Shown here one piece after another: positions 7,589 to 63,748 of a DNA stretch of 64,000 bases (its first letter is position 1; the number at the start of each line of letters is the position of its first letter). The stretch spans positions 5,632-69,631 of the forward strand of contig CAZTBI010000002.1 in assembly GCA_964612055.1 (NCBI GenBank), given 5' to 3'. Position numbers and translations under genes: made by a program. A model generated the notes under the pieces. It had not been told where the DNA came from, searched no databases, and was given only the letters and a program-made list of their open reading frames with translations. Origin of the DNA: an uncultured Bdellovibrionales bacterium. Lineage in GTDB: Bacteria; Patescibacteriota; Minisyncoccia; Moranbacterales; UBA1568.

Positions 7589-7666
7589 ATATCAATTATC
7601 AGCTCGCATCAATCATACTCGTTTCAACTCACCGCTCTTCTTCGTTGATTGCTCTTTGCTCTCTGT

Positions 7667-8071: not shown

Positions 8072-8089
8072 ATGCTTGAATATATTCTC

Positions 8090-9169
8090 TTACTCTTCTT
8101 TCCCGAGACTCACCGGTCGAATATGAAAGGGGTTTGCCTTGGGCATCGGAGCCCGAGGCGCCATTCTTTGTGGCATATTCTGCGGTTCCGGTGCCGTTCT
8201 TTCCTGCGGGATAGCCTGCGCTTTTTCTGCTGGCAGAACATGTTTCGAAGAAAACGAGAGGGTCCCTGACTGTTCTGGTGCAGCTGTTTTTGGGGTATTC
8301 ATAGTGGTAGTACCAAAATGAAAACTGGCACTATTTTGCAAAGGAGCCATTCTCGATGGAGCAACAGCTTGTGGTACTGGTCGTGGCGCCTGCGGGGCGA
8401 CAAAGGTCGGGAAAAGAACCAGGCTCTGCTCGGTATCGATTTCCAAAGGAAAGTTCTCTTCTACAGACTTAAGCACGAGGTTGACTCGCTCCCGTTCTTC
8501 CGGAGAAAGTCGCTTCCCATTCTCCGAACGAAAGAGGAAATTCCCACGCTGCACACTATCATGGTGCCCCACCCCCAGTTCATCGCGGTAATACTTGATC
8601 CAATAGAGAAGCGACGGACGGACTGGTTCACTTTGAGATTTGATTTTGATGCGCTCGCGAGTAATAAGTTGGTTACCCAACTGTTCATATTTGGAAAGGG
8701 CTTGAAGGAGCGGCAGCTTCACCGTTACTACAACTTGCTTTTTCTCCTCTTCAGACACTTCCTCAACTTTCACTTTCGGTTTGATAGTCAGAATTTCTTT
8801 CTGAATAAACTCAACAATAGCCTTAGCTTGATTCGGATCACCTCCACCACTCTCAGTGAGCATACTTGCAATTCTTGCCTCCAGTTCTGTGAGCTGTATC
8901 TCACCAAAAAAGAGTTCCCGAACAATCAAACTTACACTTCCTATAACAGAATCCTTTAGTTTTACTTTTTCCTGTAGGGACTTGATTTTTTGCGGCATTT
9001 CACTAGAAAGAATCACTTCTTGCTTATCCTGAGAAAGCTTTTCGAAGGCATCCCAAACAGACTGATCATCCTCAGGGGACATCTTTTCTTCCGTACCTTC
9101 CTTTGATACTACCATCGGATAATACCGCCGCTCTTTAATTTTTTTTTCACCTAGACCAAACATTGGCAT
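8090..9169 (-). CDS. hypothetical soluble protein with Pro-rich C-terminus (T4SS-cluster associated)
   Basis: 359 aa, no TM, C-terminal APQAPRPVPQAVAPS...PQRMAPRAPMP low complexity. Confidence 0.5.
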   Translation of the reverse strand: MPMFGLGEKKIKERRYYPMVVSKEGTEEKMSPEDDQSVWDAFEKLSQDKQEVILSSEMPQKIKSLQEKVKLKDSVIGSVSLIVRELFFGEIQLTELEARIASMLTESGGGDPNQAKAIVEFIQKEILTIKPKVKVEEVSEEEKKQVVVTVKLPLLQALSKYEQLGNQLITRERIKIKSQSEPVRPSLLYWIKYYRDELGVGHHDSVQRGNFLFRSENGKRLSPEERERVNLVLKSVEENFPLEIDTEQSLVLFPTFVAPQAPRPVPQAVAPSRMAPLQNSASFHFGTTTMNTPKTAAPEQSGTLSFSSKHVLPAEKAQAIPQERTAPEPQNMPQRMAPRAPMPKANPFHIRPVSLGKEE

Positions 9170-9181
9170 GATTCTCCAATT

Positions 9182-11185
9182 CTATGGATTAATTCCTGCC
9201 GCTCTCCATGCTGCTTTTTGTTCAGCAGTCAACTTGCTATAAGCATCAGCATGTTCCTTCGGTGACCAGTTTCCACTATGAACCTGATCAGTGACGTAGG
9301 CTATGGTTTCAGCATCAACAGGACGTCCAGTCCCACCATGCACCCCTTTAACCTTTCCGAGATCTTCAGCAGACATTCCGCCTAGATGCTTGTTATAAGC
9401 ATCTTGCCTCGTCATACCAGTAGCAATATCATTGTCAATCAATACTTTTGTATGTCCCTCTTTTTTAAGCTTCTGATCAAGCTTATCTTTAATCGCAGGA
9501 TTTGTAGCAACCATACCCTGATACTGGGCAGTAGTCATACCGTCGAAAGCTTTAGCGTCCATCTTATCAACAAGTTGAGCGATCGATTTTGTGTCGTTAC
9601 CCAAATGAGAAATAGCCGAAACCAAAGTATTGGCATCTCTAAATAATTCTTTGTCGGCTTTTTTGATAAGCTCAGCGCGCTTTTCATTTTGAGCCGCAGG
9701 ATTACCCGCATTCGCGACATCGACAGCTGCCAAACCTTGATTAAGTTGGGCGGCATCTTGGAAGCCTCCGCGCTTTGATAACAACCGAACCGCTGCTTCC
9801 AATGAAGCTTTATCGTGTTTAGTAGGATCAGCAACCATTGCTCGCAACTGAGTATCACTGGTTCGCTCTTCTTCCATCCTCTTCTCCTCTTCGGAGACTT
9901 TTTTGTTATGTTGACTCTCGACAGTTCGACGATATCCAGTCTTTCCTTCTCCCACATATGCAGCCAACCTTCCTTCGCTCTTCTCGCTAGAATCTTTCCA
10001 GTACTTAGGAGTGGCAAATCTTAGAACTTTATTATTTTCGGCACGACTCTTCAGGCCTTTTCCGACGCCTCTTGTCAACGTGTTATTATAGGTTTTCCTT
10101 CCTGCCCATTTAGCAAATTTTTGCCCCGTACCAGCTACAGCGCCGGCACCCATGATAGACATGGAAGTTGCCAGTCCAATCGCCATCCACAGCATAATCA
10201 TGGGGACGGTAAACATGGCCATAGAGCTAATAAAGCCAGCAGAAGTCGGGGCAGTATTAGCAGTCGCAGAATCAATAAATTGTTTCACCGTGTTGTCCTT
10301 CGCTATTTCTGCAAAAAAACGCGTAGCAACCATGAGCATAAGAGCTGCTGCTGGACCAAAAAACGTATACTGCCACAGTTTATCCCACCACATACCGCCA
10401 TATTTTCCGAGTCCCGGGATGACCGAAGCGGCAAAGCCGACAGAAGAAAAAATAAGAAGGATCACCAAGGCCGCTATACGAATCACAAATAGTATCGCCA
10501 AGACAAGCAGCGAAATTGAAAAGATGAACAGGAATACAATGGCCATGAGAATCTGTGACACTCCCATGCTTGTAAAATCAACCTCTTGGATACCACCCTT
10601 TGATCCAGGAATGAGGATGTTTTGAATTTGCGAAGCACTCAAAACTGTTCCCAGATAATCTTTCTGGTTTGTACCATCTCCAGTAGCCCCTATTTGATTA
10701 ATAAAGTAGTACATCGGGACATTGGTCACATCGATAATAATCCGGGTAATAGGGAAACTGAAGTTCACAAAGAGCGCCGCCAAGACAATGCTGAGCAATG
10801 TTTTCTTGTAGTTGCTCGCTACCTGAAAAACGATAGTAAAGGCAGTATAAAGAAGCGTCAGGATAAAGAAGAGGTTGAAAAAATCTCGAACAAACTGCCA
10901 CATGGTGTAGACACTGGCACGATTGAGCAGCCCATCTGATCCAGAGATATAATCCGGATTCACTGCCCATTCAAAAAGCGTAATAGCTATTGAGGCGAGC
11001 CAGCCAATCATCACAAAAACACCGTAGAGAAGAGCCTTGAATGCAGATCCTACGGTATTCCCAAGCAAATCGCCAAGACCAGCGTGCACCAAAGACGGGC
11101 TTAGAAAAAATATTCCCGATGCAAAAGCAAGAAGCGTGAAAGCAGAGACGACGATATTTTGTCTTTTGTTTTTTTTGAACACCAT
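9182..11185 (-). CDS. VirB6/TrbL-like polytopic membrane protein with C-terminal soluble domain
   Basis: 667 aa, N-terminal signal/TM then 6 or more TM helices over about 350 aa, hydrophilic C-terminal about 300 aa; position and topology as PrgH/TcpH/VirB6. Confidence 0.5.
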   Translation of the reverse strand: MVFKKNKRQNIVVSAFTLLAFASGIFFLSPSLVHAGLGDLLGNTVGSAFKALLYGVFVMIGWLASIAITLFEWAVNPDYISGSDGLLNRASVYTMWQFVRDFFNLFFILTLLYTAFTIVFQVASNYKKTLLSIVLAALFVNFSFPITRIIIDVTNVPMYYFINQIGATGDGTNQKDYLGTVLSASQIQNILIPGSKGGIQEVDFTSMGVSQILMAIVFLFIFSISLLVLAILFVIRIAALVILLIFSSVGFAASVIPGLGKYGGMWWDKLWQYTFFGPAAALMLMVATRFFAEIAKDNTVKQFIDSATANTAPTSAGFISSMAMFTVPMIMLWMAIGLATSMSIMGAGAVAGTGQKFAKWAGRKTYNNTLTRGVGKGLKSRAENNKVLRFATPKYWKDSSEKSEGRLAAYVGEGKTGYRRTVESQHNKKVSEEEKRMEEERTSDTQLRAMVADPTKHDKASLEAAVRLLSKRGGFQDAAQLNQGLAAVDVANAGNPAAQNEKRAELIKKADKELFRDANTLVSAISHLGNDTKSIAQLVDKMDAKAFDGMTTAQYQGMVATNPAIKDKLDQKLKKEGHTKVLIDNDIATGMTRQDAYNKHLGGMSAEDLGKVKGVHGGTGRPVDAETIAYVTDQVHSGNWSPKEHADAYSKLTAEQKAAWRAAGINP

Positions 11186-11332
11186 ACGTTACGAAAAGAA
11201 GATCCACTTCCCATTCTCAAACAAAAGGGGAATTTTCCGAACACTTTCGTCAAAATTATACCATACAAGAGAAGAAAACAAAAAAGAGCGCTCGCACGAA
11301 ACGCTCTTCTTTTCTTATCTTCTGACACGTTT

Positions 11333-12577
11333 CTAGTAAATGTATCCTTTGATGGCTCGGCTCGTAGCAGAAAGCGTCCGACGACTGGTCTTACCCCAAC
11401 CGACATAGTTCATTTCAGAGACCGTGATCGTACCGCCACTCACTTTTTCTACCAGGGCGACGTGACCATAGTACCGATTCTCAGTGGTTACTACGATGGA
11501 ACCAACCGCGGGCGTTCGCCCAGTCTTGTATCCCATAGCTTTGGCTTTGTAGAGCCAAGTACCAGCATTACCACTCCACGGAACATAGCGTTTCTGAGCC
11601 ACGTACCAGGTACAGTAGCCATACGGAAAGCGATGACCTGTACCAGCTCGCCCTTCGAGCTTCTTGAAACCAGAAGAAATATCAGTCGCTACACCACCTG
11701 TTGAAGTAGCATACTGACGCCGTTCGATGCCGGTATCAGGAGTGACTGGCTTCGGAGCTTCTTCTTTCTTTCCGTCAGGGATGATAATGAGGTCGCCCAC
11801 TTCTATTTCACCATTCGCTGGCAACTCATTGAAGGCGATAATTTTTTCCTTCTCTGCCTTATACATTGAAGCGATAGAATCAAGGGTATCACCAGACTTC
11901 ACCACATAGGAGAGTCCCGCTACCGGCAAGATAAATATCTGATCGCCTGGCTTGATCTGATCAGCATTGTCGAGGTCGTTAGCCCAGAGAACCGTATTGA
12001 CCGTAATACCGTTCTTCGAGGCGATACCACTTAAGGTATCGCCGTCCTTGACGGTATAGATCTTCACCCCGCCATCTTCTTCTGGGTCACGAGCGATAGA
12101 AGAGCCAGTCTGAGTCGAAAGAAGCACCTGGTTCCCCAAAGTAGCATTCTGAATATCCAAGAGTGAAATATCAGTTTTCTCCTCTGGATCAATAGGAGCA
12201 GGGGCATTGGCAAGCGGCACCAAAGACAGGTTCTCCTTTTTACTAACCTGCGCCGCGATACGATGCTTAGACGAAAGCGCTTCCTCAGCAGAAGCACCGT
12301 CGCCGTTAATATAGCCGAAAAGAAGGCTCTCTGAGTCTTTTCCCTGAGTGAAATTACTCACCGAAACGAGTAAAGCGCTCGAAGTGACGATAGAAAAGGC
12401 TGAATAGTTTCGAAAAATACGTACGACTCGATAGCCGGAAACTTCCTTGATAAAATGAAGCACTCTCGTCTGAAGACGGTGAAGGCGAGTATGCAAAGCG
12501 TAGGAAGAGACAGGATAGTCTCTTTTTTCCTTCACGTGAGGAGCGCGTTTCCAAGGAAACGATAAACGCTCTTTCAC
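11333..12577 (-). CDS. peptidoglycan hydrolase with two LysM domains and C-terminal CHAP domain (VirB1 functional analog)
   Basis: LysM motifs YTVKDGDTLSGIASKNGITV and YVVKSGDTLDSIASMYKAEKEKI; CHAP catalytic Cys (YGYCTWYV) and His (YGHVALVEKV); N-terminal TM anchor. Confidence 0.8.
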   Translation of the reverse strand: MKERLSFPWKRAPHVKEKRDYPVSSYALHTRLHRLQTRVLHFIKEVSGYRVVRIFRNYSAFSIVTSSALLVSVSNFTQGKDSESLLFGYINGDGASAEEALSSKHRIAAQVSKKENLSLVPLANAPAPIDPEEKTDISLLDIQNATLGNQVLLSTQTGSSIARDPEEDGGVKIYTVKDGDTLSGIASKNGITVNTVLWANDLDNADQIKPGDQIFILPVAGLSYVVKSGDTLDSIASMYKAEKEKIIAFNELPANGEIEVGDLIIIPDGKKEEAPKPVTPDTGIERRQYATSTGGVATDISSGFKKLEGRAGTGHRFPYGYCTWYVAQKRYVPWSGNAGTWLYKAKAMGYKTGRTPAVGSIVVTTENRYYGHVALVEKVSGGTITVSEMNYVGWGKTSRRTLSATSRAIKGYIY

Positions 12578-13027: not shown

Positions 13028-13981
13028 ATGACCTCTTTTGAAAAGCCACAGAACGATATCGAAGCTTTAGCCAAGCGCTTTTGTGACCACCTCGAGATAG
13101 AACTCAACCGATCCAGACGGACACTCGAGAGCTATTCTCGGGTGCTGCAGTCCTTCTTTTCCTGGGGAAACATCACTATTCCAGCCGATATTACCGCCGA
13201 AAAGGTCCGGGAATATCGTCTTCACCTGAACCGTAAGTCGAACCGTCGAGGGGAAAGCCTCAAGAAGAACACCCAGTCCTACCACGCTATTGTACTTCGC
13301 ACCTTCCTCAAATACCTCGCTAAACAAGACATCGAGGTCCTGCCAGCTGAAAAAATCGAGGTGGGAAAGGCCGAAGACCGACAGATTGATTTCCTCGAAT
13401 ACGATGAGGTCATGCGTCTGATCGAAGCCGCCTCCGGAAAAACCCCGAAGAACCTCCGTGATCAAGCCATCCTGGAACTTCTTTTTTCTTCGGGGCTGCG
13501 CGTCTCGGAACTCGTCTCACTCGATCGCAACCACGTGAATCTGGAGAAAGAAGAGTTCAGTGTCCGTGGTAAGGGTCGAAAATTACGTATTGTCTTTATT
13601 TCACCTGAAGCCAAGAAATCACTCCAAAAATATCTCGATATCCGCTCTGATGTCGATCCGGCTCTCTTCATCGCCTATCCCAAAAAAGGCCTGGTCAATG
13701 AGAAGAATAGGAAGCGCGAGACACTCCGTCTCACGACCAGGAGCATCGCTCGCATCGTGAAACACTATGCCACCAAGGCTGGAATACTGAAAGATGTCCA
13801 TCCGCACACCCTGCGTCACAGTTTTGCCACGGATCTTTTGGTTAATGGTGCCGATATCAGATCAGTACAAGCCATGCTTGGACATGCCTCCATCACTACC
13901 ACTCAGATCTACACCCACGTCACCAACGAACGCCTGAAAGAAGTCCATCAATCCTTCCACGCCAAAAGAAAAAAGAAGTGA
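13028..13981 (+). CDS. xerD: tyrosine site-specific recombinase XerC/XerD family
   Basis: C-terminal catalytic box HPHTLRHSFATDLLVNGADIRSVQAMLGHASITTTQIYTHV; RSRRTLESYSRVL N-terminal SAM-like domain. Confidence 0.85.
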   Translation: MTSFEKPQNDIEALAKRFCDHLEIELNRSRRTLESYSRVLQSFFSWGNITIPADITAEKVREYRLHLNRKSNRRGESLKKNTQSYHAIVLRTFLKYLAKQDIEVLPAEKIEVGKAEDRQIDFLEYDEVMRLIEAASGKTPKNLRDQAILELLFSSGLRVSELVSLDRNHVNLEKEEFSVRGKGRKLRIVFISPEAKKSLQKYLDIRSDVDPALFIAYPKKGLVNEKNRKRETLRLTTRSIARIVKHYATKAGILKDVHPHTLRHSFATDLLVNGADIRSVQAMLGHASITTTQIYTHVTNERLKEVHQSFHAKRKKK

Positions 13982-14003: not shown

Positions 14004-16253
14004 TTATACCTTCTTCAGTGGCGCCACTCCGAGCATCATTTTCTTGACGCCGGCACGCTTGAAGGCGATAGTAGCCAGTGTTCCAGCGATCGAAACGATC
14101 AGTCCCGAACCGAACTGCGGATGTTCCACCATGTCTCCTGGCCTAACGTCACTGAACGTCAGCGGCTCTGCAGTTTCCGTGTTTCCTTCGGATATTTTTA
14201 GAGCTTCTTTGAGAGAACCGACTTTTTTTGTCGCTACTGGAAACGAATGAAAAGACTTTCGAAAATGACGCTTGCCCATCATCCCAGTACGTTTCAGTTC
14301 TTTTTCATCAATCAAGTGACTGGGAATTTCACTGATGAAACGTGACGGCGGATTCACCTGCGTCGAACCAAAAATAGTTCGCTGTTCGGTATAGAGGAGA
14401 CACACTCGCTCCTTGGCCCGGGTCAGTCCCACGTACATGAGCCGGCGCTCTTCTTCCATCTCTTGTGGCGAGAGGGCGCTCCGTGAGTGCGGGAACACGC
14501 CTTCTTCCAACCCGAGAATGAACACGATCGGAAACTCCAACCCCTTGGCGCTGTGCACTGTCATGACATGCACTGCCTCACTCTCCCGATTGATCTCATC
14601 GGTATCAGATGATAGCGCCACTTCTTCGAGGAAACGCTCCAGTGCTTGATCGAGACTGGTATCATTAAATTTCTGTGCCACCGAAAAAAGTTCCCGCACG
14701 TTTTCTTGCCGTACTTCTCCTTCGCTCGTCCCATCAGCCAGACTATCAAAATAACCACTCTGTTCTGTGAGAAGATCCAAAAGCTCCGTCAGTTTCAGGT
14801 CCGTCCGACTCTCCATCGTGGCTCGGATCTTCAAGAAGATATCGGCAAACTGCTTGATAAGCTTGATTTTGCCATCGCGGAGGTCACTTGTTTCAGTGGA
14901 AAGTTCATACGCCGCCTCCATAACACTCATATCCTTGGCTCGCGAGAAAGCAATCCACCGGTCGAGCGTTGCTCTTCCGATGCTTCGTTTGGGTTCATTC
15001 ACAATACGCTCCAACGCCAAGACGTCCTTTGGATTCTGTAAAAGCTTCACGTAAGAAATAACGTCCTTGATTTCCTTGCGCTGATAGAATTTGAGTCCCC
15101 CGACAATCCGATAGTTGATAGAGTAACGAAGAAACATTTCTTCCACAATACGAGACTGAGCATTGGTACGGTAGAGTACTGCAAAGTCACTCGCTGTACG
15201 CCCTTTCTTCATTTCTTCTTGCACTGTCTCCGCCACAAAACGCGCTTCTGCCTCTTCATCTTCTGCCGGACAGAGCGTGATCAATTCTCCAGCCTTAGTT
15301 TCCGTCCACAATTTCTTGTGGCGCTGGTGAACGTTCTTTTCAATTACCCCGGTGGCGGCATCAAGAATGACCTGAGTGGAACGATAATTCTGATCAAGCA
15401 CGATGACTGCTGCCTCCGGATAGTCTTTTTCAAAATTCAAAATATTACGAATATCCGCCTGACGCCAACCGTAAATCGACTGATAGTCATCGCCGATCAC
15501 AAAAATGTTGCCGTGTTTCTTAGCAAGAAGGTGTACCAGGGTGTACTGAAGCGAGTTGGTATCCTGATACTCGTCCACCATGACGTAGCGGAACAATTCT
15601 TGATACTTCTCCAAAACTTTTGGATATTCCTGAAAGAGTTTTACCGTCAATCGGATCATGTCGTCAAAATCCAAAGCATTGGTATTTTTGAGCTCCTTCT
15701 GATACCGCTCGTACACCTTGGCGGCTAGTTCCTCGTAGTAACTCCCCGTCTGAAGCAGATACTGTTCCGGCTCCATCTGGGCATTCTTAGCTTTCGAGAT
15801 CGCTTCCAAAAGCGAGCGTGGCCGTACCTGGTCCGGATCCATCTCGAGCTCCTTCATGACCTTTTTCACGATCGACTGCTGATCCTGATCATCAATAATA
15901 TTGAAATTCCGACCATACCCCAGGACTTCAATCTCCCGACGTAAGATCTTGGCACAAATGTTGTGAAAGGTGCCGATATGCGGCGGTAAGACCAAGGCGC
16001 CATATTCTGCTGCCTCACTCTGGGAAAGCAACTTCTCAATACGCTCCCGCATCTCCTGAGCCGCCTTATTCGTAAAAGTGACCGCCAAGATCCGCTCAGG
16101 ACTTACTTTTTTCTCTTCGATCAAGTAAGCAATACGGTGCGTCAAAGTCTTCGTCTTACCGGATCCGGCTCCAGCCAAAATCAAAACTGCCCCTTCTGTG
16201 GTCAGAACGGCCCGCAATTGCTCTGGATTCAACCCTTTTTCCCAAAATTTCAT
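14004..16253 (-). CDS. pcrA: ATP-dependent DNA helicase PcrA/UvrD
   Basis: LNPEQLRAV...ILAGAGSGKTKTLTHRIAYLI Walker A, DEYQDTN motif, 749 aa. Confidence 0.9.
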   Translation of the reverse strand: MKFWEKGLNPEQLRAVLTTEGAVLILAGAGSGKTKTLTHRIAYLIEEKKVSPERILAVTFTNKAAQEMRERIEKLLSQSEAAEYGALVLPPHIGTFHNICAKILRREIEVLGYGRNFNIIDDQDQQSIVKKVMKELEMDPDQVRPRSLLEAISKAKNAQMEPEQYLLQTGSYYEELAAKVYERYQKELKNTNALDFDDMIRLTVKLFQEYPKVLEKYQELFRYVMVDEYQDTNSLQYTLVHLLAKKHGNIFVIGDDYQSIYGWRQADIRNILNFEKDYPEAAVIVLDQNYRSTQVILDAATGVIEKNVHQRHKKLWTETKAGELITLCPAEDEEAEARFVAETVQEEMKKGRTASDFAVLYRTNAQSRIVEEMFLRYSINYRIVGGLKFYQRKEIKDVISYVKLLQNPKDVLALERIVNEPKRSIGRATLDRWIAFSRAKDMSVMEAAYELSTETSDLRDGKIKLIKQFADIFLKIRATMESRTDLKLTELLDLLTEQSGYFDSLADGTSEGEVRQENVRELFSVAQKFNDTSLDQALERFLEEVALSSDTDEINRESEAVHVMTVHSAKGLEFPIVFILGLEEGVFPHSRSALSPQEMEEERRLMYVGLTRAKERVCLLYTEQRTIFGSTQVNPPSRFISEIPSHLIDEKELKRTGMMGKRHFRKSFHSFPVATKKVGSLKEALKISEGNTETAEPLTFSDVRPGDMVEHPQFGSGLIVSIAGTLATIAFKRAGVKKMMLGVAPLKKV

Positions 16254-16324
16254 AGAACTTTACTATTCTATCACAGTCCGTACCTTCACTCTATCCTGGG
16301 AAGAAATATGCTAAAATACCAGAT

Positions 16325-17959
16325 ATGAAAGCCTTTTTCCTGAAATGTATTGAGAGTATCGAAAATACCCCGCTCACTCTGAGATCCTTCAGCGTAGCCT
16401 TTTTTGCGCTCATTATTGCCCGCCTCACAGTAGAGAACACCCTTGGACTTTTCAGGGAAGGTTCGTTCTTCTTTTTCTTTTTTGAATTCACCCACACCTT
16501 CCTCTTTTTCCTCTGCTCCTTCATTATCATGCTTCCCATTGTCTGGTGGGCAGGCGCTGTCGACCTAAAAAAGGCAGCCAACATTCTCCTTTTTGGCTTT
16601 CTCATCATTCTCACGCCACCTATTATTGACACCTGGATCTTCCATGGGAGTCATTTCTGGAGCTTTTATGAGTTTGACGGACTAAGAGGGCTTTTCGGGC
16701 GCTTCTTCACCCTCTTCGGAGACACACCTGATATCGGCATTACGTACGGTGTTCGGGTCGAAGTAGTCTTGGTCACTCTCGCTCTTGGCATGTACACCTT
16801 CCTCAAGTCTAGGCGCTTGGGCAAGAGCCTTCTCGCCGCTCTCCTGACATACACCACCCTTTTTGTACTTGGCACTTTTCCTTCTTGGGTCACGCTCTTT
16901 GTTCTTGCTTTCCAAAAAGGTCTCTTTGCCATCACAAGTAGTGACGTGGCCGCCCTTTTCCTCTCTCCAGAACAAATTCTTGGACGCGATCTCTCAGACT
17001 TTCGGAGCGTACTTAATTTCAAGATGAGCCTCATCTACGCCCTCCTTGCAAGCACCTTAGGAAGCCTCCTCCTCTTCCGTCAGGCTCCAACCTACTTCTT
17101 TGCACTCTGGAACAATGCTCGTCTTCCTCAGCTTATCTACCATGCCGGCCTTCTCATTCTTGGCATGCTCCTTGCCATCTATTTCTCCAATGGCCATTTC
17201 CAATTCGAATTCTTCCACCTCCTTGGCATCGCTGTTCTTCTCATCGCCGTTGAGTCAGCCTGGCTCGCTTCAGTCATCGTCAATGACATACACGATACCA
17301 AAATAGATGCTCTCACCAACCCCAACCGGCCACTCATTGAACACACTATTCCGACCGAGCTCTATCCTGTCTTCGGCGCTCTTTTCTTTGCCATCTCCAT
17401 CGTCTTTTCTGGTATTGTCAGTTTTTCAGCTCTCCTCATGCTCCTCGCCTACCAGGCGATTGCCTGGCTTTATTCTGCTCCACCACTCCGTCTCAAGAAA
17501 TACCCCCTCCTTGCCACATTTCTCGCTGCCTTTGCCGGTATCCTGGTTCTTGTCGCTGGTTCTGTTTCCCTCTCGGAAACGCATGACATCTCCGCCCTCC
17601 CCTTGCCACTCCTCATCTATCTCTTCATCGCCTATCTGCTCGCCCTTCCCATTAAAGACTTCAAGGACATCAGGGGTGATCAGGGTGATCAGGTCTACAC
17701 TATCCCTGTCCTCTTGGGCGCACAACTCGGGAAACAGGTCATTGGTACCCTGACCTTTCTTCTCTTCGTTTTCAGTCCGTTTGTTCTTCATATACGCTCC
17801 CTCTTTTTTCCAGCCCTCTTCTTCGGCGGCCTTACCTTTCTCGCACTTCAAAAAGGGACCGACGATGAAGCATCTTTCTTCGCCTTCCGAAAACTGCCTC
17901 GTATCATTCTTACTCTTACTATTCTCTACGGTATCGTCACCGTGCTCTTCCTGGTGTAA
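16325..17959 (+). CDS. UbiA-family prenyltransferase domain fused to an N-terminal polytopic membrane domain
   Basis: VNDIHDTKIDALTNPNRPL (NDxxDxxxD motif) and KDFKDIRGDQGDQVYTIPV (second Asp-rich motif); 544 aa, highly hydrophobic. Confidence 0.6.
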   Translation: MKAFFLKCIESIENTPLTLRSFSVAFFALIIARLTVENTLGLFREGSFFFFFFEFTHTFLFFLCSFIIMLPIVWWAGAVDLKKAANILLFGFLIILTPPIIDTWIFHGSHFWSFYEFDGLRGLFGRFFTLFGDTPDIGITYGVRVEVVLVTLALGMYTFLKSRRLGKSLLAALLTYTTLFVLGTFPSWVTLFVLAFQKGLFAITSSDVAALFLSPEQILGRDLSDFRSVLNFKMSLIYALLASTLGSLLLFRQAPTYFFALWNNARLPQLIYHAGLLILGMLLAIYFSNGHFQFEFFHLLGIAVLLIAVESAWLASVIVNDIHDTKIDALTNPNRPLIEHTIPTELYPVFGALFFAISIVFSGIVSFSALLMLLAYQAIAWLYSAPPLRLKKYPLLATFLAAFAGILVLVAGSVSLSETHDISALPLPLLIYLFIAYLLALPIKDFKDIRGDQGDQVYTIPVLLGAQLGKQVIGTLTFLLFVFSPFVLHIRSLFFPALFFGGLTFLALQKGTDDEASFFAFRKLPRIILTLTILYGIVTVLFLV

Positions 17960-17992
17960 CAAAAAAATGAGCGCTATAAGAAAAGAACTCCC

Positions 17993-18802
17993 TCAGGAGT
18001 TCTTTTCTCTATCCCACAAAGCGAGTTCTTCCCACTGTTCAATCGAAAGTCCCTGCGCGCGAATATCTTTTCGTAAACCAAGTGACTCCAACTTTTTCTC
18101 TACCACCTCACGTGGTATCGAGAGACTCGTGGCCAGATTATTCGCCAAGGTTTTCCGACGCGCTGCAAATCCGGCTCGAGCCAGACGAAATACCTTCCGA
18201 TCTTCTTCGGGATCATAGGCGCGCTTCGGAACAATATGCACGACTGCACTGTTCACTTTTGGTACCGGATCAAAAGCTGTTTTCGGAACAAACAATTTCT
18301 TCTCAACATGAGCATAGTACTGCGCCATGACTGAAAGAAGACTCATATCACCCGGTTCGGCCGCAAGACGCTTGGCTACTTCATCCTGCACCATAAGCGT
18401 CAGTGACTGCGGTTGAGATGGTAGCGAAAGGAGCGTGCGAATAATTGGCGCCGTGATGTAGTATGGGATATTAGCGACGATCTTGTAGGGATGCTCGGAG
18501 AAACCGGAGGATTGCAACAATTCTTCAAGGTGGAGATCCAAGATATTTCCTTCTACAATAGAGACGCTTTTCGAATCCACAAAATGCTTCTGGAGTTGCA
18601 CCGCCAGTTCATGATCAAGCTCAATCGCCAAAAGTTTTTCAGACCGCTCTGCTAGTTGAAAAGTAAGTGCTCCGGTTCCGGGACCCACTTCTACTACCCA
18701 GTCAGTCGGCATTACTTCTGCCACAGTAAAGATTCCCTCAATGACCTCTTCGTCTTTGAGAAAATTCTGCCCGAGTGATTTCTTAGCTACTACCTTCTTC
18801 AT
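17993..18802 (-). CDS. rsmA: 16S rRNA (adenine1518/1519-N6)-dimethyltransferase RsmA/KsgA
   Basis: SLGQNFLKDEEVIEGI, VVEVGPGTGALT SAM motif, 269 aa. Confidence 0.9.
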   Translation of the reverse strand: MKKVVAKKSLGQNFLKDEEVIEGIFTVAEVMPTDWVVEVGPGTGALTFQLAERSEKLLAIELDHELAVQLQKHFVDSKSVSIVEGNILDLHLEELLQSSGFSEHPYKIVANIPYYITAPIIRTLLSLPSQPQSLTLMVQDEVAKRLAAEPGDMSLLSVMAQYYAHVEKKLFVPKTAFDPVPKVNSAVVHIVPKRAYDPEEDRKVFRLARAGFAARRKTLANNLATSLSIPREVVEKKLESLGLRKDIRAQGLSIEQWEELALWDREKNS

Positions 18803-33351: not shown

Positions 33352-33921
33352 ATGACGAGTTTCAAAAATATATTTATTATTTATGGACCATCAGGATCTG
33401 GCCAAGATTCTGTCATAGAAGGTGTTGCGGAACAAATAGCCATAGAAAGGGTTATCACAACGGTCACGCGACCGATGCGATCCACAGAATCACAGGGACA
33501 CCCCTACTATTTCATCTCTCGCGAAGAGTTCGAGAAGGAAATAAAGCAAAGCTCTCTCTTGGAGTATGTCGAAAAATATCTCGGCGTATATTATGGGGTG
33601 ACGACAAAAGAAGTAGAACGCATTGCAAAGAGTGGAAAAGTAGGAATTTGGAAAGTGGATTTCGAGGGAGCGCGCAATCTCAAGCAACGCTTCCCAGAAC
33701 TCACTGTCATTTTTATTAACGCCCATCTTGATATCATTGAGGAGAGGTTGCGCAAACGCGGTGATATAACAGAAGAAGATCTCCAAGCAAGATTGAGTCA
33801 CATACGTGAATGGCTTCCTAAAAAGACCTATGACTATAAAGTTGAAAATGAGGAAGGAAAACTCGACCAAACGATCGAACACGTTGCCCGCATCATCAAA
33901 GAGCATACTGAGAAAAAATAG
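33352..33921 (+). CDS. gmk: guanylate kinase
   Basis: P-loop GPSGSGQDS, TTVTRPMRSTESQGHPYYFISREEFEKEI guanylate-kinase signature region, 189 aa. Confidence 0.7.
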   Translation: MTSFKNIFIIYGPSGSGQDSVIEGVAEQIAIERVITTVTRPMRSTESQGHPYYFISREEFEKEIKQSSLLEYVEKYLGVYYGVTTKEVERIAKSGKVGIWKVDFEGARNLKQRFPELTVIFINAHLDIIEERLRKRGDITEEDLQARLSHIREWLPKKTYDYKVENEEGKLDQTIEHVARIIKEHTEKK

Positions 33922-33940
33922 CTCCGACATCACTCCTTTT

Positions 33941-34885
33941 GTGCGGGCCTTTTTGAAGCGTGTCCAGAACACCGTCACCACAGAGAGTCTCTGGGGGAAG
34001 AAAGAACACTTCATCATCGCCGTCTCTGGTGGGGCGGACAGCCTGTGCCTCCTCGATGTTCTCTTCCTCCTTTCGAAAAAGTACGATTTTAAGCTTCATA
34101 TCGCCCACGTCAATTACCGTCTACGCCAAGAAGACTCCGCCCTCGACGAAGCTTTGGTGCGGGAACGGGCCGCTTTTTATAAGCTCCCCTTGACCGTGCT
34201 TCATCCGAAAAAAACCACGTCTTCCAACCTTGAAGAGAAGCTCCGTGATATTCGCTATCATTTTCTGGAAACCGTCCGAAAAAAAGAGCAGGCCACTCTC
34301 ATTGCCGTCGCTCACCACGAAGATGACCAGGCAGAAACTTTTCTTCTCCGCCTGCTCCGCGGGTCTGGCATGACTGGTCTTTCCGCTATGCGACCAAAGC
34401 ATGGATATATCATCCGCCCTCTCATCAAAGTAAGTCGCCAGGATATCCTCCGTTACCTCAAAGAACGCAACATCGCCTATCGGACAGACGGCAGTAACGG
34501 CGATCAAAAATTTTTACGAAACCGCCTGCGCCACGAACTCCTCCCCCTCTTAGAAAAAGAGTACCAACCGAAAGTACGAAAAATTCTGGCTGATACCGCC
34601 GCGCTCCTCGCCTCAGACTATGCCATACTCGAAACATTGTCCTCACCTCATACTGATACGAAAGAATTCTCAGTTCAAGTACTCCTCGCCCTACCAGAGC
34701 CAGTCCTCAAAACAAGACTCCGTTTCCTCCTCAAGCCCTACTATAAAGGTAAGGCTGCCCCAAAGGGACTTATCGAAGAGATTCTGAAGCTTCTCAAAAG
34801 CCGCAAAGGGAAGATTCAGACCCTCTCCTTCCGAGGGTTGAAGATCGAGCGGAAAGGTGATACAGTGAGACTACTCAATTTTTAA
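33941..34885 (+). CDS. tilS: tRNA(Ile)-lysidine synthetase
   Basis: PP-loop IIAVSGGADSLCLLDVL, HVNYRLRQEDS; ORF-track ORF begins at 33806 inside gmk, so a GTG start at 33941 (28 aa before SGGADS) is proposed; ATG at 33848 is the alternative. Confidence 0.75.
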   Translation: MRAFLKRVQNTVTTESLWGKKEHFIIAVSGGADSLCLLDVLFLLSKKYDFKLHIAHVNYRLRQEDSALDEALVRERAAFYKLPLTVLHPKKTTSSNLEEKLRDIRYHFLETVRKKEQATLIAVAHHEDDQAETFLLRLLRGSGMTGLSAMRPKHGYIIRPLIKVSRQDILRYLKERNIAYRTDGSNGDQKFLRNRLRHELLPLLEKEYQPKVRKILADTAALLASDYAILETLSSPHTDTKEFSVQVLLALPEPVLKTRLRFLLKPYYKGKAAPKGLIEEILKLLKSRKGKIQTLSFRGLKIERKGDTVRLLNF

Positions 34886-40192: not shown

Positions 40193-41956
40193 CTATTTGT
40201 CAATATTATATGAGAGAAGACGAGAAGAAGAGAAAAGACCAAGCATCAACCAGAAAAGTAGCTGCCCTTGCTGAATATCCCAGAGATAATGATCAAAAAG
40301 TGAAACTACTCCTAAAAATAAGATTACTGCCTCTAATAAGGCCTTCGTCCTCAAGCCACCTATTGTTCCACGTGGAACATTTTTCACTAAATCAGTTTCA
40401 TTATTTTTCAAATGTTCCACGTGGAACATTTTTTCTTGATCTGATTTAATAGATTCTCTATTGTTCCACGTGGAACATTTTTTCTTAATCCAGTTTAAGA
40501 AACCCCGGATTGTTCCACGTGGAACAATTATTAAGATAAGAAAAATAAGGAAGAGGAGGGCTCCGATAAGGCCGGTTTCAGAAAAAATAAGGAGGAAAAG
40601 GTTATGAACTGGCTGAAATTGCCATGGGAACAACTTTTCGGAGAAAAAGTCCTGCATAGCAAAAACCGATTGACCTATACCCTCTCCTTGAAACGGGTAT
40701 TCCTTTAGGATAAAAAAGGAGCCTTTTTCAAGAAATACCCTTTCTTTAAAGGGCTGGGTAAAGAAATATTGCCAATTTACCATTCCTAGAAATAACCCCA
40801 TGGTGATGGTTATGAGTAAAATCTTAGGGATGTTCCACGTGGAACATTTTTTTCGGAACCAACTAAAGAGGTCTTGAATTGTTCCACGTGGAACATTTTT
40901 TTCGGAACCAACTAAAGAGGTCTTGAATTGTTCCACGTGGAACATCTTGTATACAAAGTAACCTATAGCGAGTAGGAGTCCTAAAAAGGCCCCTTTCGAG
41001 AAAGTGAGCAAAAAGCCAGTAACCTGAATGCCCAGGACAAGCCTGTACAATAAGACTGATTGTTCCACGTGGAACAATTGATGATTTTTCCATACATTGT
41101 TCCACGTGGAACATTTTTCCTGAATCCAACTGAGAATATTTTGGATTGTTCCACGTGGAACATTTTGTGAAGAATCCTGATCAGTGCTTCTTAGTATAAG
41201 TAAATGTTCCACGTGGAACATTTTTCTACCAAAAATAAGCGGGTAAGCTACGGTGAAAAGAATAGTTATTCCAAAAAACCCACCTAGGATATTTGGGTGC
41301 GGGAATAAGCCATAAGCACGAATAAGGCTCTCTTCTGCTAAGATGATCTTTGCTACTCCAGTGCCACCAGATGAAAGGATACTTTCTTTCAAAAAACTCA
41401 ATCCGAGAGAGGATTGTGAGATAAATTGAAGGATAGCCAGTACTGACTGGAAAAAGCCTCCTATAATCAAAGAAACAAACGTTATGTGCCGAATGTTCCA
41501 CGTGGAACAATCTTGGTGCTTTAAGGAAATTGTTCCACGTGGAACAAAATAAAGCAGAAGGAAGATGTAGAGCAAATAACCTGCTAGGAGTCGTGAAAAG
41601 GAGTAAGCACCCAGTAAATGACTTTTTGACCAGAAAATGGAAAGCCCTGACCAGAGAAGAAATGGTAGAGGAGCAAAGAATAGCACTTTAAATTGTTCCA
41701 CGTGGAACAATTGTTTCCACCACAATATTGACAGGATAGTATTTCTATTCTCTAATATAAATACTATGAGGACACCAAGCAGAAGCATGTCTGATAGGTA
41801 GAGCGAGATGTCCGTGTATTCATTGAAACCACTGGTTCCGTCTGGAGAAAAAACAAAAAAGACTTTTCGAACAGAAAGGGGGAGGGTGAAGAGAAAAAGA
41901 AAGAAGGTGGCTTTCCCTAGTCTCTTTTCTTTCAGAAAAACAGCCGGAGCTATCAT
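40193..41956 (-). CDS. O-antigen ligase (Wzy_C/WaaL)-like membrane protein interrupted in frame by multiple palindromic repeat insertions
   Basis: Non-repeat segments (AYGLFPHPNILGGFFGITIL; PFQGEGIGQSVFAMQDFFSEKLFPWQFQPVHNLFLLIFSETGLIGALLF) align with the O-antigen-ligase paralog at 62462-63748; repeat-encoded MFHVEH / NVPRGTI / KCSTWN peptides recur 14 times. Confidence 0.5.
   Translation of the reverse strand: MIAPAVFLKEKRLGKATFFLFLFTLPLSVRKVFFVFSPDGTSGFNEYTDISLYLSDMLLLGVLIVFILENRNTILSILWWKQLFHVEQFKVLFFAPLPFLLWSGLSIFWSKSHLLGAYSFSRLLAGYLLYIFLLLYFVPRGTISLKHQDCSTWNIRHITFVSLIIGGFFQSVLAILQFISQSSLGLSFLKESILSSGGTGVAKIILAEESLIRAYGLFPHPNILGGFFGITILFTVAYPLIFGRKMFHVEHLLILRSTDQDSSQNVPRGTIQNILSWIQEKCSTWNNVWKNHQLFHVEQSVLLYRLVLGIQVTGFLLTFSKGAFLGLLLAIGYFVYKMFHVEQFKTSLVGSEKNVPRGTIQDLFSWFRKKCSTWNIPKILLITITMGLFLGMVNWQYFFTQPFKERVFLEKGSFFILKEYPFQGEGIGQSVFAMQDFFSEKLFPWQFQPVHNLFLLIFSETGLIGALLFLIFLILIIVPRGTIRGFLNWIKKKCSTWNNRESIKSDQEKMFHVEHLKNNETDLVKNVPRGTIGGLRTKALLEAVILFLGVVSLFDHYLWDIQQGQLLFWLMLGLFSSSRLLSYNIDK
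40364..41709. repeat. 14 copies of perfect 16-bp palindrome TGTTCCACGTGGAACA in five clusters (49-bp tandem units plus singles)
   Basis: Copies start at 40364, 40413, 40462, 40511, 40831, 40880, 40929, 41061, 41098, 41147, 41205, 41494, 41531, 41694; spacings 49/49/49, 49/49, 37/49/58, 37; flanks conserved (attgttccacgtggaacatttt). Confidence 0.9.
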
Positions 41957-44335: not shown

Positions 44336-44348
44336 CCGGATTTTTTTG

Positions 44349-44430
44349 TGGGCGAGGAGGGACTCGAACCCTCATGTCTTTTGGACACAACATTTTAAGT
44401 GTCGCGTGTATACCATTCCACCACTCGCCC
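44349..44430 (-). tRNA. tRNA-Leu (anticodon TAA), type II
   Basis: Reverse complement gives GGGCGAG...anticodon loop CTTAAAA, long variable arm TGTCCAAAAGACATGA, T-loop TTCGAGT, acceptor TCGCCC-A; 82 nt. Confidence 0.85.
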
Positions 44431-44444
44431 ATTTATAAATTTTC

Positions 44445-44933
44445 CTAACCTTTCTTTTTATTTCTTCCTCTATGTGTTGGTTTTAAACTATGACAATTTG
44501 GACAAAGAACTCTCAAATTTTCTAATCGATTATCATTTCTGTCACCGTTTATATGATCCAGCTCCAGAGGAATTCTTCCATCCTCTGAAACTTTTTTCCA
44601 GCCACATTCTTCACATTCTTTCTTTTTTATTTCCGCTCCAAAAAGTCGCTTCTTTAATTTAAAGCTCTGATAGCTTGAATTTTTAACAAGTATTTTTTCT
44701 AAAGTTTTCGGAGCTTTACGAGCAAATGGCATTCCCTTGCTCCAACCCATTCCTAAAAAATGACTCGTGTTGAGATTAAGTTGAGAGATTCTATTCTGAA
44801 TTTGAACATAATTTCCGCCTGCAGGAATAAGACCAAGAGCATAGATCACCTGTCGGACACTTCTTGATTCTTTAACGGCCTCTACAAGTTGCTTCTCTGT
44901 CCATTTACAACTCCTCATATGGTACACTATCAC
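44445..44933 (-). CDS. HNH endonuclease
   Basis: C-terminal CEECGW...ELDHINGDRNDNRLENLRVLCPNCHS (HNH/His-Me finger with Zn-binding Cys pairs); 162 aa. Confidence 0.75.
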   Translation of the reverse strand: MIVYHMRSCKWTEKQLVEAVKESRSVRQVIYALGLIPAGGNYVQIQNRISQLNLNTSHFLGMGWSKGMPFARKAPKTLEKILVKNSSYQSFKLKKRLFGAEIKKKECEECGWKKVSEDGRIPLELDHINGDRNDNRLENLRVLCPNCHSLKPTHRGRNKKKG

Positions 44934-44981
44934 TTATATCTTTAAGTATACCATTAAAAATCTTGATTTCAAATAACCTAG

Positions 44982-45052
44982 AGGTCGCGTCCGGAGTCGA
45001 ACCGGACTAAAGGGATTTGCAGTCCCGTGCCTAACCGATCGGCCACGCGACC
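44982..45052 (-). tRNA. tRNA-Cys (anticodon GCA)
   Basis: Reverse complement: acceptor GGTCGCG/CGCGACC, anticodon loop CTGCAAA, T-loop TTCGACT, discriminator U (typical of tRNA-Cys); 71 nt. Confidence 0.8.
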
Positions 45053-60331: not shown

Positions 60332-61282
60332 ATGAAAAAAAATATAAAAGCCTTCTTAGTAGTTTTAGGTCTTCTCTCGATGAGCTTCGCCTTTACTCCA
60401 GAAACCAGAGCTCAAGCTCCTCAGGCTGGACTTCAGTATCAACTCTTGGAAAAAATTCCTTTCACGAACGACGTTAGCGGCAGTGATCTCCCGAGCTACG
60501 TCAGCGCGCTCTATAAAGTAGCCCTCATTGTTGTCACGCTCTCAGCCGTCCTCATGCTCTCTATTGGTGGTTTCATGTACCTAACCAGTGCTGGCAACAC
60601 CGCTTCCATGGGGAATGCCAAGGGCATTATTTATGACTCTCTCATCGGTCTCGTTATTGCTCTTGCTGCCTGGCTTATCCTCTATATCATCAACCCTGAT
60701 CTGGTCAAAATAAGTTTGAAGGTTCTCCCTCCCGTGACGCCCTTAACCGGTCAAGCAGGGACTCCAGAGGGTCTCGGCACACTCCCTCCTGAAAGCACAG
60801 TCGAACTCGCCAAACAAATCCTTGCCAGTGGAAATATCAACCTGGCTTCTTCTGGAAGCTGCAAAAGCCCAAGCGGCACAGTTTCTCCGAGAAAAAATAT
60901 TGAGGATGTGGCCGCCGGAAAAAGGATGGCTGCTTGTTATGCTGGCCCGAGATGCGTCGCTGAAGGGGAAAGAGGCTGCGCAGATGATGCCGTACGCCCA
61001 AGCGAGACCATGCTCAAAGCTATTTGGACTGTCGGCCAGAGCCAGCGATTCACCATCACCAGTATGAGCGGCGGACCACACGGCGCGAATTCCGCTCACT
61101 ACAAAGGCCAGGCCATCGATATCTCTCCCGCTACTCAAGCGCTGATGGATGCCTTCACCAAGGAAGGAGCGGCGGCACCGAATGGCCAAAGTGCCTCTAT
61201 GTGCGAAAATGAAAATGGCAAGAATGTTGGTTGCGCCCAAGGCAGCGGAGCTGACCATATCCACCTCGTTTTCCCGAATTAG
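60332..61282 (+). CDS. fusion protein: N-terminal TrbC/VirB2-pilin-like domain plus C-terminal M15 (VanY/LAS-type) zinc peptidase domain
   Basis: Signal peptide, then two TM helices (VALIVVTLSAVLMLSIGGFMYL ... LIGLVIALAAWLILYII) separated by a short loop as in VirB2/TrbC pilins; C-terminus has SGGPHGANSAHYKGQAIDIS (H-x6-D) and GADHIHLVF (D-x-H) zinc-peptidase motifs. Confidence 0.55.
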   Translation: MKKNIKAFLVVLGLLSMSFAFTPETRAQAPQAGLQYQLLEKIPFTNDVSGSDLPSYVSALYKVALIVVTLSAVLMLSIGGFMYLTSAGNTASMGNAKGIIYDSLIGLVIALAAWLILYIINPDLVKISLKVLPPVTPLTGQAGTPEGLGTLPPESTVELAKQILASGNINLASSGSCKSPSGTVSPRKNIEDVAAGKRMAACYAGPRCVAEGERGCADDAVRPSETMLKAIWTVGQSQRFTITSMSGGPHGANSAHYKGQAIDISPATQALMDAFTKEGAAAPNGQSASMCENENGKNVGCAQGSGADHIHLVFPN

Positions 61283-62461: not shown

Positions 62462-63748
62462 TCACTCCCCAGATGGGGAGTTTTTCTTTTCCTGACTCTT
62501 GATATTCGAAAAACCAAGCGCGAGAAGTAGCGCAAAACCCAGTGCCAAATCATTCTTGAAATACGGAGTATCCGTCACTCCGTAAACAAGTGTCAGGAGA
62601 AGTAGCGCCAAAGTCAGCGCTGCTGTCAGGCGCTTCACTTCATTTACTTCAGAGACGAGGGATTGAAACGCGAGGTAGCCGAAACGCCCAACCAAAAGAA
62701 GGAAGCCGAAAAAACCCGTGAGACCGGTACTGAGAAGAACCGCGAGATACAGGTTGTGCGGCTCTGGAACAGCCCATTCCAAATAGGGAGGAAAATACTT
62801 CTGATATTCGAGGTACTCCGCCTGAAACCTGCCTGGGCCAATACCGAAGACGAGGTTGTCCTGGAGTATCTTTTCAGCGGCCCGCCAGATCATCACCCGT
62901 GAAGCAAGCGAGGAGCGAGTATCAGAAGAGAATGTGGCCTGCCATTTTTCACTCCCATGCTCAAAGAAAAAGAATGTTCCTATAGAAAAGAGAACGATCA
63001 GAATAAGGGAAAGTGTCTTTTTGGAAAAATGCTGAAAAATGCGGCTCCCGAAAAGAAAAAAGGTTATCGCTCCAAAAAGCGCTCCCCAGACTCCATAGGA
63101 ACGGGTAAAGAAAAGTACCACGAGAACCAAGGCGCTTCCGGAAAAAAGAAGTGCCTGTTGGAAAAAATTCTTTCCACCTTGTTCCTCGGAAAGGAATGAG
63201 AGATAGAGGGCGATGAGCGGAGCAGGAGCCAAGAAAAAAGCCAGGAAGTTCGGAGAAGGATATGGTCCGGAAAGTCGATGATCATAAGTCAACACATCAG
63301 CAAAGAGAAAAAAGAGGGTACCGATAGCAGTGGCAAGAAGCATCAGAAACCAAGCAAAGAAAAAGGCTTCGCGCTTTTCCAAGGTTCTCGTCTCAGAAAA
63401 AATGAGCCACCCGGCCAAGAAAGGAAAGAAAAACCAAGACTTGAGCATCCCCAAGCCCATCAGAGAAAATGGGTTAACAGAAAATGAAAGAATAGCGCCA
63501 AGACAGAACAGGACCACTCCGACAAGAAACGGCGTGTCTCTCAAAAAAAACTTGTCCTGCTTTTCTTTGAGACAAGAAAGTGAAAAAAAGACGAGGGCTA
63601 TAGTAATAGCTATCTCATGAAGATAGAGTGGTAGGCCAAAAGGGAGCACCTTCACCTGGGCAAAGGGTAACAAAAAAACAGCTACGATGAGCAGGAAGGA
63701 TACCAGATTATGCTCGAGGAGAGATGGTTTCATGTCTGTAGGATACAC
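62462..63748 (-). CDS. O-antigen ligase (Wzy_C/WaaL) family membrane protein
   Basis: 10 or more TM helices; VFGIGPGRFQAEYLEYQKYFPPYLEWAVPEPHNLYLAVLLSTGLTGFFGFLLLVG matches the Wzy_C core. Confidence 0.7.
   Translation of the reverse strand: MYPTDMKPSLLEHNLVSFLLIVAVFLLPFAQVKVLPFGLPLYLHEIAITIALVFFSLSCLKEKQDKFFLRDTPFLVGVVLFCLGAILSFSVNPFSLMGLGMLKSWFFFPFLAGWLIFSETRTLEKREAFFFAWFLMLLATAIGTLFFLFADVLTYDHRLSGPYPSPNFLAFFLAPAPLIALYLSFLSEEQGGKNFFQQALLFSGSALVLVVLFFTRSYGVWGALFGAITFFLFGSRIFQHFSKKTLSLILIVLFSIGTFFFFEHGSEKWQATFSSDTRSSLASRVMIWRAAEKILQDNLVFGIGPGRFQAEYLEYQKYFPPYLEWAVPEPHNLYLAVLLSTGLTGFFGFLLLVGRFGYLAFQSLVSEVNEVKRLTAALTLALLLLTLVYGVTDTPYFKNDLALGFALLLALGFSNIKSQEKKNSPSGE

Follow-up and report, generated by a model that had tools for sequence, protein, structure and literature searches.

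A parS-type cluster in frame within a WaaL-like gene, a probable centromere of Moranbacteria and Parcubacteria

The locus

The window analysed here is a 64-kb stretch (64,000 nucleotides) of contig CAZTBI010000002.1, from an uncultured bacterium that GTDB places in the Moranbacterales. A motif scan of the window finds 14 exact copies of the 16-bp palindrome TGTTCCACGTGGAACA, all between 40364 and 41709. They lie within one open reading frame (ORF) of 587 amino acids, which starts with ATG and encodes a predicted membrane glycosyltransferase related to the O-antigen ligase WaaL. The copies are numbered along the gene as parS 1 to parS 14, after the ParB-binding site that they match. In the following list, positions come from the motif scan, translations from frame reading, and loop placement from an AlphaFold2 (AF2) model with its per-residue score, the predicted local distance difference test (pLDDT). 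The palindromes are given without strand.

40193..41956, minus strand: host gene, predicted WaaL/Wzy_C-like 12-helix membrane glycosyltransferase; intact ORF with the whole parS array inside
41694..41709: parS 1, read as L-FHVEQ in frame a, about residues 83-87, loop between helices 2 and 3
41531..41546: parS 2, read as F-VPRGT in frame c, about residues 138-142, loop between helices 4 and 5
41494..41509: parS 3, read as CSTWN-I in frame b, about residues 150-154, loop between helices 4 and 5
41205..41220: parS 4, read as M-FHVEH in frame a, about residues 247-251, loop between helices 6 and 7, pLDDT <50
41147..41162: parS 5, read as N-VPRGT in frame c, loop between helices 6 and 7
41098..41113: parS 6, read as CSTWN-N in frame b, loop between helices 6 and 7
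41061..41076: parS 7, read as L-FHVEQ in frame a, end of the loop between helices 6 and 7
40929..40944: parS 8, read as M-FHVEQ in frame a, loop between helices 8 and 9
40880..40895: parS 9, read as N-VPRGT in frame c, loop between helices 8 and 9
40831..40846: parS 10, read as CSTWN-I in frame b, loop between helices 8 and 9
40511..40526: parS 11, read as I-VPRGT in frame c, loop between helices 10 and 11
40462..40477: parS 12, read as CSTWN-N in frame b, loop between helices 10 and 11
40413..40428: parS 13, read as M-FHVEH in frame a, loop between helices 10 and 11, pLDDT <50
40364..40379: parS 14, read as N-VPRGT in frame c, loop between helices 10 and 11

The initial annotation of this DNA described 14 copies and their spacings, and the exact scan confirms this. 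Within successive groups, the copies are 49/49/49, 49/49, 37/49/58 and 37 bp apart, and one copy stands alone. Tandem Repeats Finder (TRF) reports 49-bp arrays at 40360-40526 (78% matches) and at 40831-40945 (100%). A single 587-amino-acid ORF does translate all copies in three phases, as was claimed: five are read as FHVE, five as VPRGT and four as CSTWN. Outside the 14 copies, no further match with up to three mismatches is found in the whole window, and none of 100 dinucleotide-preserving shuffles of the window yielded a match.

On the plus strand, antisense to the gene, the palindrome and its T run score as an intrinsic-terminator-like hairpin, with 13 found in 40364-41709 against 2.6 expected. 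Promoter predictions in the window are at background level. An Rfam scan of the window returned only tRNAs, with no family inside the array. An array of clustered regularly interspaced short palindromic repeats (CRISPR) was also considered and ruled out, as the 16-bp repeats are inside an ORF and Pfam scans of the window detected no cas genes.

Identity of the palindrome

Dimers of the CTP-dependent clamp protein ParB load onto DNA at a 16-bp sequence, parS. Judged by sequence, the 14 palindromes are this canonical ParB-binding site. Each copy is a 16-bp palindrome that fits the chromosomal parS consensus tGTTNCACGTGAAACa. TGTTCCACGTGGAACA is identical to the perfect palindrome parS2/parS3 of P. 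aeruginosa (PMC4368675) and to parS of P. putida (PMC7022226), and a single base separates it from the M. xanthus consensus TGTTCCACGTGGAACG (PMC7022226). It is also the parS of B. bacteriovorus, where purified ParB binds to it and accumulates in a CTP-dependent manner (bioRxiv 10.1101/2023.06.27.546657). The literature matches listed for the TGTTCCACGTGGAACA string concern ParB, parS or partition systems. The only departures seen among relatives of the window are a T at position 5 and an A at position 12; at both, the canonical consensus TGTTNCACGTGAAACA allows variation.

The motif is widespread. When one genome per GTDB species was scanned, motif copies paired 17-47 bp apart were found at 120 or more species loci. 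Those listed belong to Acidobacteriota, Bacteroidota, Bacillota, Verrucomicrobiota, Proteobacteria, Planctomycetota, Actinomycetes and the candidate phyla radiation (CPR). Among the matches listed, a ParB homologue shares an 8-kb block with the motif pair at 52 of 120 loci, as counted by tblastn with a Spo0J probe. The motif itself is already known, and what is new is the embedded arrangement.

Could the palindromes be operators of another dimeric regulator that controls the glycosyltransferase gene or its neighbours? The ParB gene is not found near any examined locus, and TrmB-family regulator genes are located within a few kb in some relatives (L011, L122-L124). ParB itself can repress near parS in P. 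aeruginosa, according to one report (PMC5521831). However, the motif matches validated parS at 16 of 16 positions and varies at the same two wobble positions. An arrangement of 10-17 operators over 1.3 kb of coding DNA is unlike regulator architecture, and identical motif pairs adjoin parB in other phyla. Control by another regulator is therefore improbable. The last of three readings offered in the initial annotation, clustered sites for a dimeric regulator, comes closest to the evidence among them because ParB is a dimeric helix-turn-helix protein.

Constraint on the DNA and on the reading frame

The codons that spell the exact parS are used almost without exception. In 73 orthologues, exact parS codons encode VPRGT in 213 of 214 cases, FHVE in 198 of 207 and CSTWN in 157 of 163 (96-99.5%). 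Background codon usage predicts 0.3%, 1.2% and 0.2%, respectively. The conserved entity is the DNA, not the peptide. The opposite proposal is that the repeats are selected as peptides in the loops and that the DNA palindrome is incidental. In its favour, FHVE, VPRGT and CSTWN are retained at about 13 places in the majority consensus of 47 homologues. However, one and the same DNA yields three unrelated peptides, and the genes hardly ever turn to synonymous codons, although at most 1.2% exact matches would be expected. The zones are also predicted to be disordered, and the flanking AAA/TTT is independent of phase. The codon test refutes peptide selection, which we regard as extremely unlikely.

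The AAA-parS-TTT extended palindrome occurs in all three reading phases across the orthologues, which enlarges the conserved unit from 16 bp to about 22 bp. Candidate roles of the AAA/TTT flanks are ParB binding, DNA bending and termination of antisense transcripts. The palindrome was said to contain no stop codon in any frame, and this is borne out: the C5/G12 form is stop-free in all six frames. A at position 12 creates a TGA stop in one frame. Of 69 non-redundant loci, 67 have all their sites in a single stop-free frame; the median length is 587 amino acids.

The reading frame also shapes the spacing of the sites. Distances between neighbours form a 3-nt ladder (37, 40, 43, 46, 49 and 52), as expected from codon-wise insertions and deletions under a reading-frame constraint. 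At the metagenome loci, which are related by descent, neighbour spacings leave remainders of 1, 2 and 0 on division by 3 in 145, 93 and 19 cases (chi-square p = 5e-21). The corresponding numbers for parS pairs of other phyla, mostly in non-coding arrays, are 46, 54 and 50 (p = 0.73). Sites in the gene avoid multiple-of-3 spacing from their neighbours. Since neighbours are in different frames, a repeat-mediated deletion between them would shift the frame of the gene, so that selection on the gene would stabilise the array. We call this frame-locking, by which selection on the gene would protect the array.

Some units have been copied recently. The two 33-bp spacers that flank parS 9 (40847-40928) have the same sequence and are read in different frames, one giving FKTSLVGSEK and the other IQDLFSWFRKK. 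They are the product of a recent duplication or conversion in which the ORF was kept open. In the closest relative (P0001), the first of these two intervals is 37 nt instead of 49 nt by hand count, a 12-nt in-frame difference.

The array is a natural case of dual coding, in which an invariant DNA site, predicted to bind a protein, is translated in three frames. Dual coding leaves measurable effects on codon choice, on spacer length through the 3-nt ladder, and on frame order.

Conservation and confinement in related genomes

A protein search returned 505 homologues, and parS-derived peptides are present in 119 of the best 120, with up to 18 in each. Because this search was seeded by shared words and is biased toward parS-bearing proteins, it was repeated on metagenome contigs with the seed patterns WQFQPVH and DIQQGQ, both of which belong to the conserved core of the enzyme and are not derived from parS. 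Ranking by tblastn against the window protein left the best 80 of 278 metagenome loci, whose identity extends down to about 29%. In the search for the repeat in relatives that the initial annotation proposed, the consensus parS is found within the orthologous gene at 79 of these 80 loci, which represent the nearer relatives. Counting at these loci gives 659 sites in 155 kb of gene versus 2 in 772 kb of flanks, a difference of about 1600-fold; the rest of the window has none. Confinement to one region, a mark of parS, is thus seen both in the window and at the 80 loci.

The arrangement is also conserved among related genomes. Assemblies from JGI, ENA and NCBI supply more than 80 contigs in which the sites occupy the same gene, the same loops and the same synteny. 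Long contigs keep the order RbfA-DHH-UDG / gene / TSP3 ... FtsH-TilS ... GyrA. In L011 (Moraniibacteriota) and L013 (Parcubacteria group), the orthologous ORF runs through 6-8 exact parS sites and a few one-mismatch variants. The UDG-DHH-RbfA synteny of the window adjoins the sites of L102 (CPR), and in L121 all 17 of 17 sites are inside an ORF of 628 amino acids. The same loops of the same orthologue are occupied down to about 27-30% protein identity. In Moranbacteria and Parcubacteria of the CPR, a cluster that matches parS is built in frame into an orthologous gene of predicted WaaL-like (Wzy_C) type.

A more distant case is L062:721-2226 (CAZQLN010000002.1), on a contig labelled 'uncultured Bdellovibrionales'. 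It encodes an orthologue of 501 amino acids (27% identity, E 1e-35) with 7 exact parS sites in frame, in the same loops as in the window protein. The arrangement may exist outside the CPR or may have been transferred; otherwise the contig has been assigned to the wrong bin.

These distributions bear on the proposal that an in-frame mobile palindromic element colonised the gene. The initial annotation had likened the palindromes to Rickettsia palindromic elements (RPEs) with a different repeat and, alternatively, had suggested a decaying pseudogene colonised by a miniature inverted-repeat transposable element (MITE). RPEs are about 100-150 bp long, lineage-specific and dispersed through many genes. 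As with RPEs, genes here tolerate palindromic DNA in frame, and the loops gain peptide segments from it. The palindrome has no stop in any frame and is read in frame, and some units were copied recently, as the fully identical 49-bp units at 40831-40945 show. However, what is confined here to one orthologous gene is a universal 16-bp protein-binding site, not a lineage-specific motif. Copies dispersed in unrelated genes or intergenic DNA are seen neither in the window nor in the 772 kb of flanks, apart from the two sites in the latter. The same loops of the same orthologue are occupied even in distant relatives. The unit is 16-22 bp, without terminal repeats or target duplications, rather than a lineage-specific element of at least about 100 bp with terminal repeats, and the spacers vary between sites and genomes. 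Tandem duplication or gene conversion inside the array would account for the local 49-bp copies. A mobile element is highly improbable, and the RPE-like interpretation is not sustained. For annotation, this means that 'hypothetical' insertions in O-antigen-ligase-like proteins should not be taken as mobile elements or pseudogenes.

The host protein

The host protein matches Pfam Wzy_C (PF04932) over residues 308-470 with 27.3 bits, which is below the cut-off of 31.7; the match is broken by the inserts. Many orthologues among the 505 homologues have a precomputed PF04932 match. A paralogue at 62465-63748 on the minus strand (428 amino acids) matches Wzy_C with 68.6 bits and contains zero parS sites. 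An alignment with a paralog at 62462-63748 had been claimed; it does exist, but it is weak (29% identity over 126 amino acids, E = 4e-4). Only the gene at 40193..41956, of the two Wzy_C paralogues, hosts the array.

The AF2 model of the 587-amino-acid protein has a pLDDT of 79.3 and a predicted template-modelling score (pTM) of 0.83. It predicts a 12-helix fold with a long periplasmic Arg/Arg/His loop. Residues with pLDDT <50 are nearly confined to 142-149, 246-296, 342-358, 373-375 and 499-529, which are the parS zones. The sole significant match in the PDB is the O-antigen ligase WaaL (7tpg_B, E 6e-5, probability 1.00, TM-score 0.61). The WaaL-matching core upholds the initial description of the gene as a real O-antigen-ligase-like gene. 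When insertion sites were compared with transmembrane helices, as had been suggested, the copies were found in loops between helices of the model.

An alignment of 47 homologues contains 26 invariant columns, which include R213, R406 and H451. These are candidate catalytic Arg/His residues. WaaL has 12 helices and a periplasmic loop bearing Arg/Arg/His (PMC10920833). The invariant R213, R406 and H451 fit this loop, which would place the five parS zones on the cytoplasmic side. The assignment relies on the helix order in the model, on the positive-inside rule, and on the N-terminus-in topology of WaaL, which we take to hold for this protein in orienting the model. Lys and Arg residues number 29 in the presumed cytoplasmic segments versus 11 in the outer loops. 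The five parS zones would thus correspond to five cytoplasmic loops. In the paralogue and in low-parS orthologues, the zones are missing or contain decayed relics such as MFHGEH, NVPHGT and CSAWN.

In the P0066/P0085/L011 clade (L011, L122-L124), an extra parS-type site, YLNVSRGTI/YLDVSRETI, is located within the structured periplasmic-loop region, outside the cytoplasmic loops.

The integrity of the gene argues against an assembly artefact or a fortuitous ORF in a dead gene. Short perfect repeats may collapse or expand in short-read assemblies, and the exact copy number in the window is not guaranteed. However, the same arrangement recurs in the more than 80 contigs from three sources. At the composition of the gene, about 7% of random codons are stops, and 587 codons would stay open by chance with a probability of about 1e-18. 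The residues of the core are invariant. We consider the chance of an artefact or of a dead gene to be close to negligible. The stop-free frame in 67 of 69 orthologues, the 26 invariant columns and the confident WaaL-like core likewise speak against the decaying pseudogene of the initial annotation.

A probable centromere

The array is probably a chromosomal centromere and ParB loading zone. ParB dimers, encoded elsewhere in the genome, would start loading at the 14 sites, form closed CTP clamps there and then spread along the DNA. The resulting partition complex would be used by ParA and/or the SMC condensin for chromosome segregation and organisation. This model supposes that ParB of such organisms binds AAATGTTCCACGTGGAACATTT. 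Two codes would then share one DNA: the ParB site would be fixed at the nucleotide level, and the frame and the enzyme core would be held by selection on the protein. The motif, its distribution and the modelled topology suggest that ParB binds the sites, that they serve in segregation and SMC loading, and that the loops face the cytoplasm.

Several observations weigh against this reading or limit the figures behind it. Pfam profile scans found no ParB, ParA or DnaA gene in the window, nor DnaN. Probes for ParB, Soj and DnaA gave no tblastn matches in 1.12 Mb of related CPR loci. The Spo0J probe is functional, since it is the one that matched at 52 of 120 loci, among the matches listed, in the scan that included other phyla. 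A ParB consensus probe against the protein database retrieved only Bacillota-type ParB, which says nothing on the CPR. No GC-skew switch or other origin marker is seen in the window. The mod-3 counts are not independent, as the loci share descent. Finally, the parS peptides of the window protein raise the tblastn score by which the 80 loci were ranked at the top of 278, so the figure of 79 of 80 describes nearer relatives only.

As for other landmarks, gyrA is 10 kb from the gene in the window and adjoins the gene in some relatives. A parAB operon was found neither in the window nor, at any of the related loci, less than 10 kb from the gene. In the literature searched, we found no paper that links parS or ParB with Patescibacteria, CPR or Parcubacteria, and no description of such an in-gene parS cluster.

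A further idea concerns why a centromere would be placed here. It is conceivable, although on balance doubtful, that the centromere is placed in alternating frames of a needed 12-helix gene for frame-locking, and/or that transertion tethers ParB-parS to the membrane. If true, this would be a way to maintain or anchor a bacterial centromere that has not been described before. The Bdellovibrionales-labelled L062 hints that the arrangement predates the CPR or is transferable.

The array would show where the probable centromere lies in a large group of ultra-small, uncultivated bacteria, about whose cell biology very little has been learned. The FHVE / VPRGT / CSTWN signature in a WaaL-like ORF provides a simple finder for such putative centromeres. 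The arrangement also raises ideas of frame-locking of repeat arrays, of coupling between a membrane-protein gene and segregation, and of ParB roadblocks on gene expression. Once genetic tools for the CPR mature, a parS cassette paired with ParB may serve for plasmid stabilisation or chromosome labelling.

Comparison with known systems

Multi-site chromosomal centromeres are present in Streptomyces and Corynebacterium, and in the multi-site centromeres known to us the sites are distributed across tens to hundreds of kb. We know of no report from M. xanthus, Streptomyces or Corynebacterium of a cluster inside one reading frame. M. xanthus has 22 parS sites (PMC7022226), and its multi-site centromere resembles the present array in that many near-identical parS sites serve one partition complex. 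The chromosomal parS sites of the ParABS systems of P. aeruginosa (parS2/3), P. putida and B. bacteriovorus share the palindrome and its variation at positions 5 and 12 only, and they cluster in one region of the chromosome. P. aeruginosa has 10 putative parS sites, of which four are near oriC, and B. bacteriovorus has two parS sites upstream of parAB (bioRxiv 10.1101/2023.06.27.546657). In contrast, 14 sites (up to 17 in relatives) occupy 1.35 kb of one ORF here.

Dense parS arrays sampled outside the CPR are mostly not contained in one ORF, and their spacing has no mod-3 bias. In L112 (Acidobacteriaceae, CAWCRD010000006.1), 11 identical parS sites in 1.7 kb adjoin parB, with at most three per open frame. 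Dense non-coding parS arrays may be commoner than model organisms suggest. Further dense parS clusters, not in a single frame, are seen in other phyla (L028, L065).

Two other systems share single aspects of the arrangement. In B. subtilis, a parS site is reportedly located inside the coding sequence of spo0J (parB) and translated as ...VPRET..., as described by Lin and Grossman in 1998. That site is likewise in an ORF and translated, but it is a single site in parB itself, with no array and no use of three frames, and the gene does not encode a membrane protein. The sopC locus of the F plasmid repeats a 43-bp unit 12 times in tandem, and every unit has a 16-bp inverted repeat; the locus is non-coding, plasmid-borne and bound by SopB. 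The array in the window similarly contains sub-arrays of head-to-tail units of 37-49 bp with one 16-bp ParB-type palindrome each. However, the bound sequence is different, and the units here are coding and are interrupted by conserved transmembrane segments. The new feature is a whole array of 10-17 sites in frame in one WaaL-like gene across a large CPR clade.

Other features of the window

The Pfam content of the window is of CPR type, with genes resembling a type IV secretion system (T4SS), many small proteins of unknown function and a housekeeping backbone. The T4SS-like cluster at 3640-12577 is of the kind reported for Patescibacteria, and several of its large proteins have no Pfam matches. 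The following features were noted outside the array.

4890-6887: TraG/VirB4-type ATPase, T4SS-like cluster
7670-8071: PrgI-family protein, T4SS-like cluster
11336-12577: LysM/CHAP cell-wall hydrolase, T4SS-like cluster
13028-13978, plus strand: XerC/D-type tyrosine recombinase (Phage_integrase, 144 bits), beside the T4SS-like cluster and UvrD
16325-17956, plus strand: UbiA-family prenyltransferase, 544 amino acids, which coincides with the skew peak and opposes the transcription of most neighbours
44448-44933, minus strand: HNH endonuclease ORF, between tRNA-Leu(taa) and tRNA-Cys in the region 44348-45052
60332-61279: T4SS pilin-like gene, far from the cluster

A recombinase similar to that at 13028-13978 is located just past FtsH in the relatives L123 and L124. 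The strongest strand asymmetry of the window is found at 16001-18000, with a GC skew of -0.28 and an AT skew of -0.23. At the tRNA cluster, the HNH endonuclease ORF possibly represents a small selfish or homing element. The guanylate kinase ORF (33352-33921) and the TilS ORF (33806-34885, GTG start) overlap by about 115 bp, and the gene calls of L121 and L125 show the same overlap. A genuine overlap is possible, as is a TilS start further downstream.

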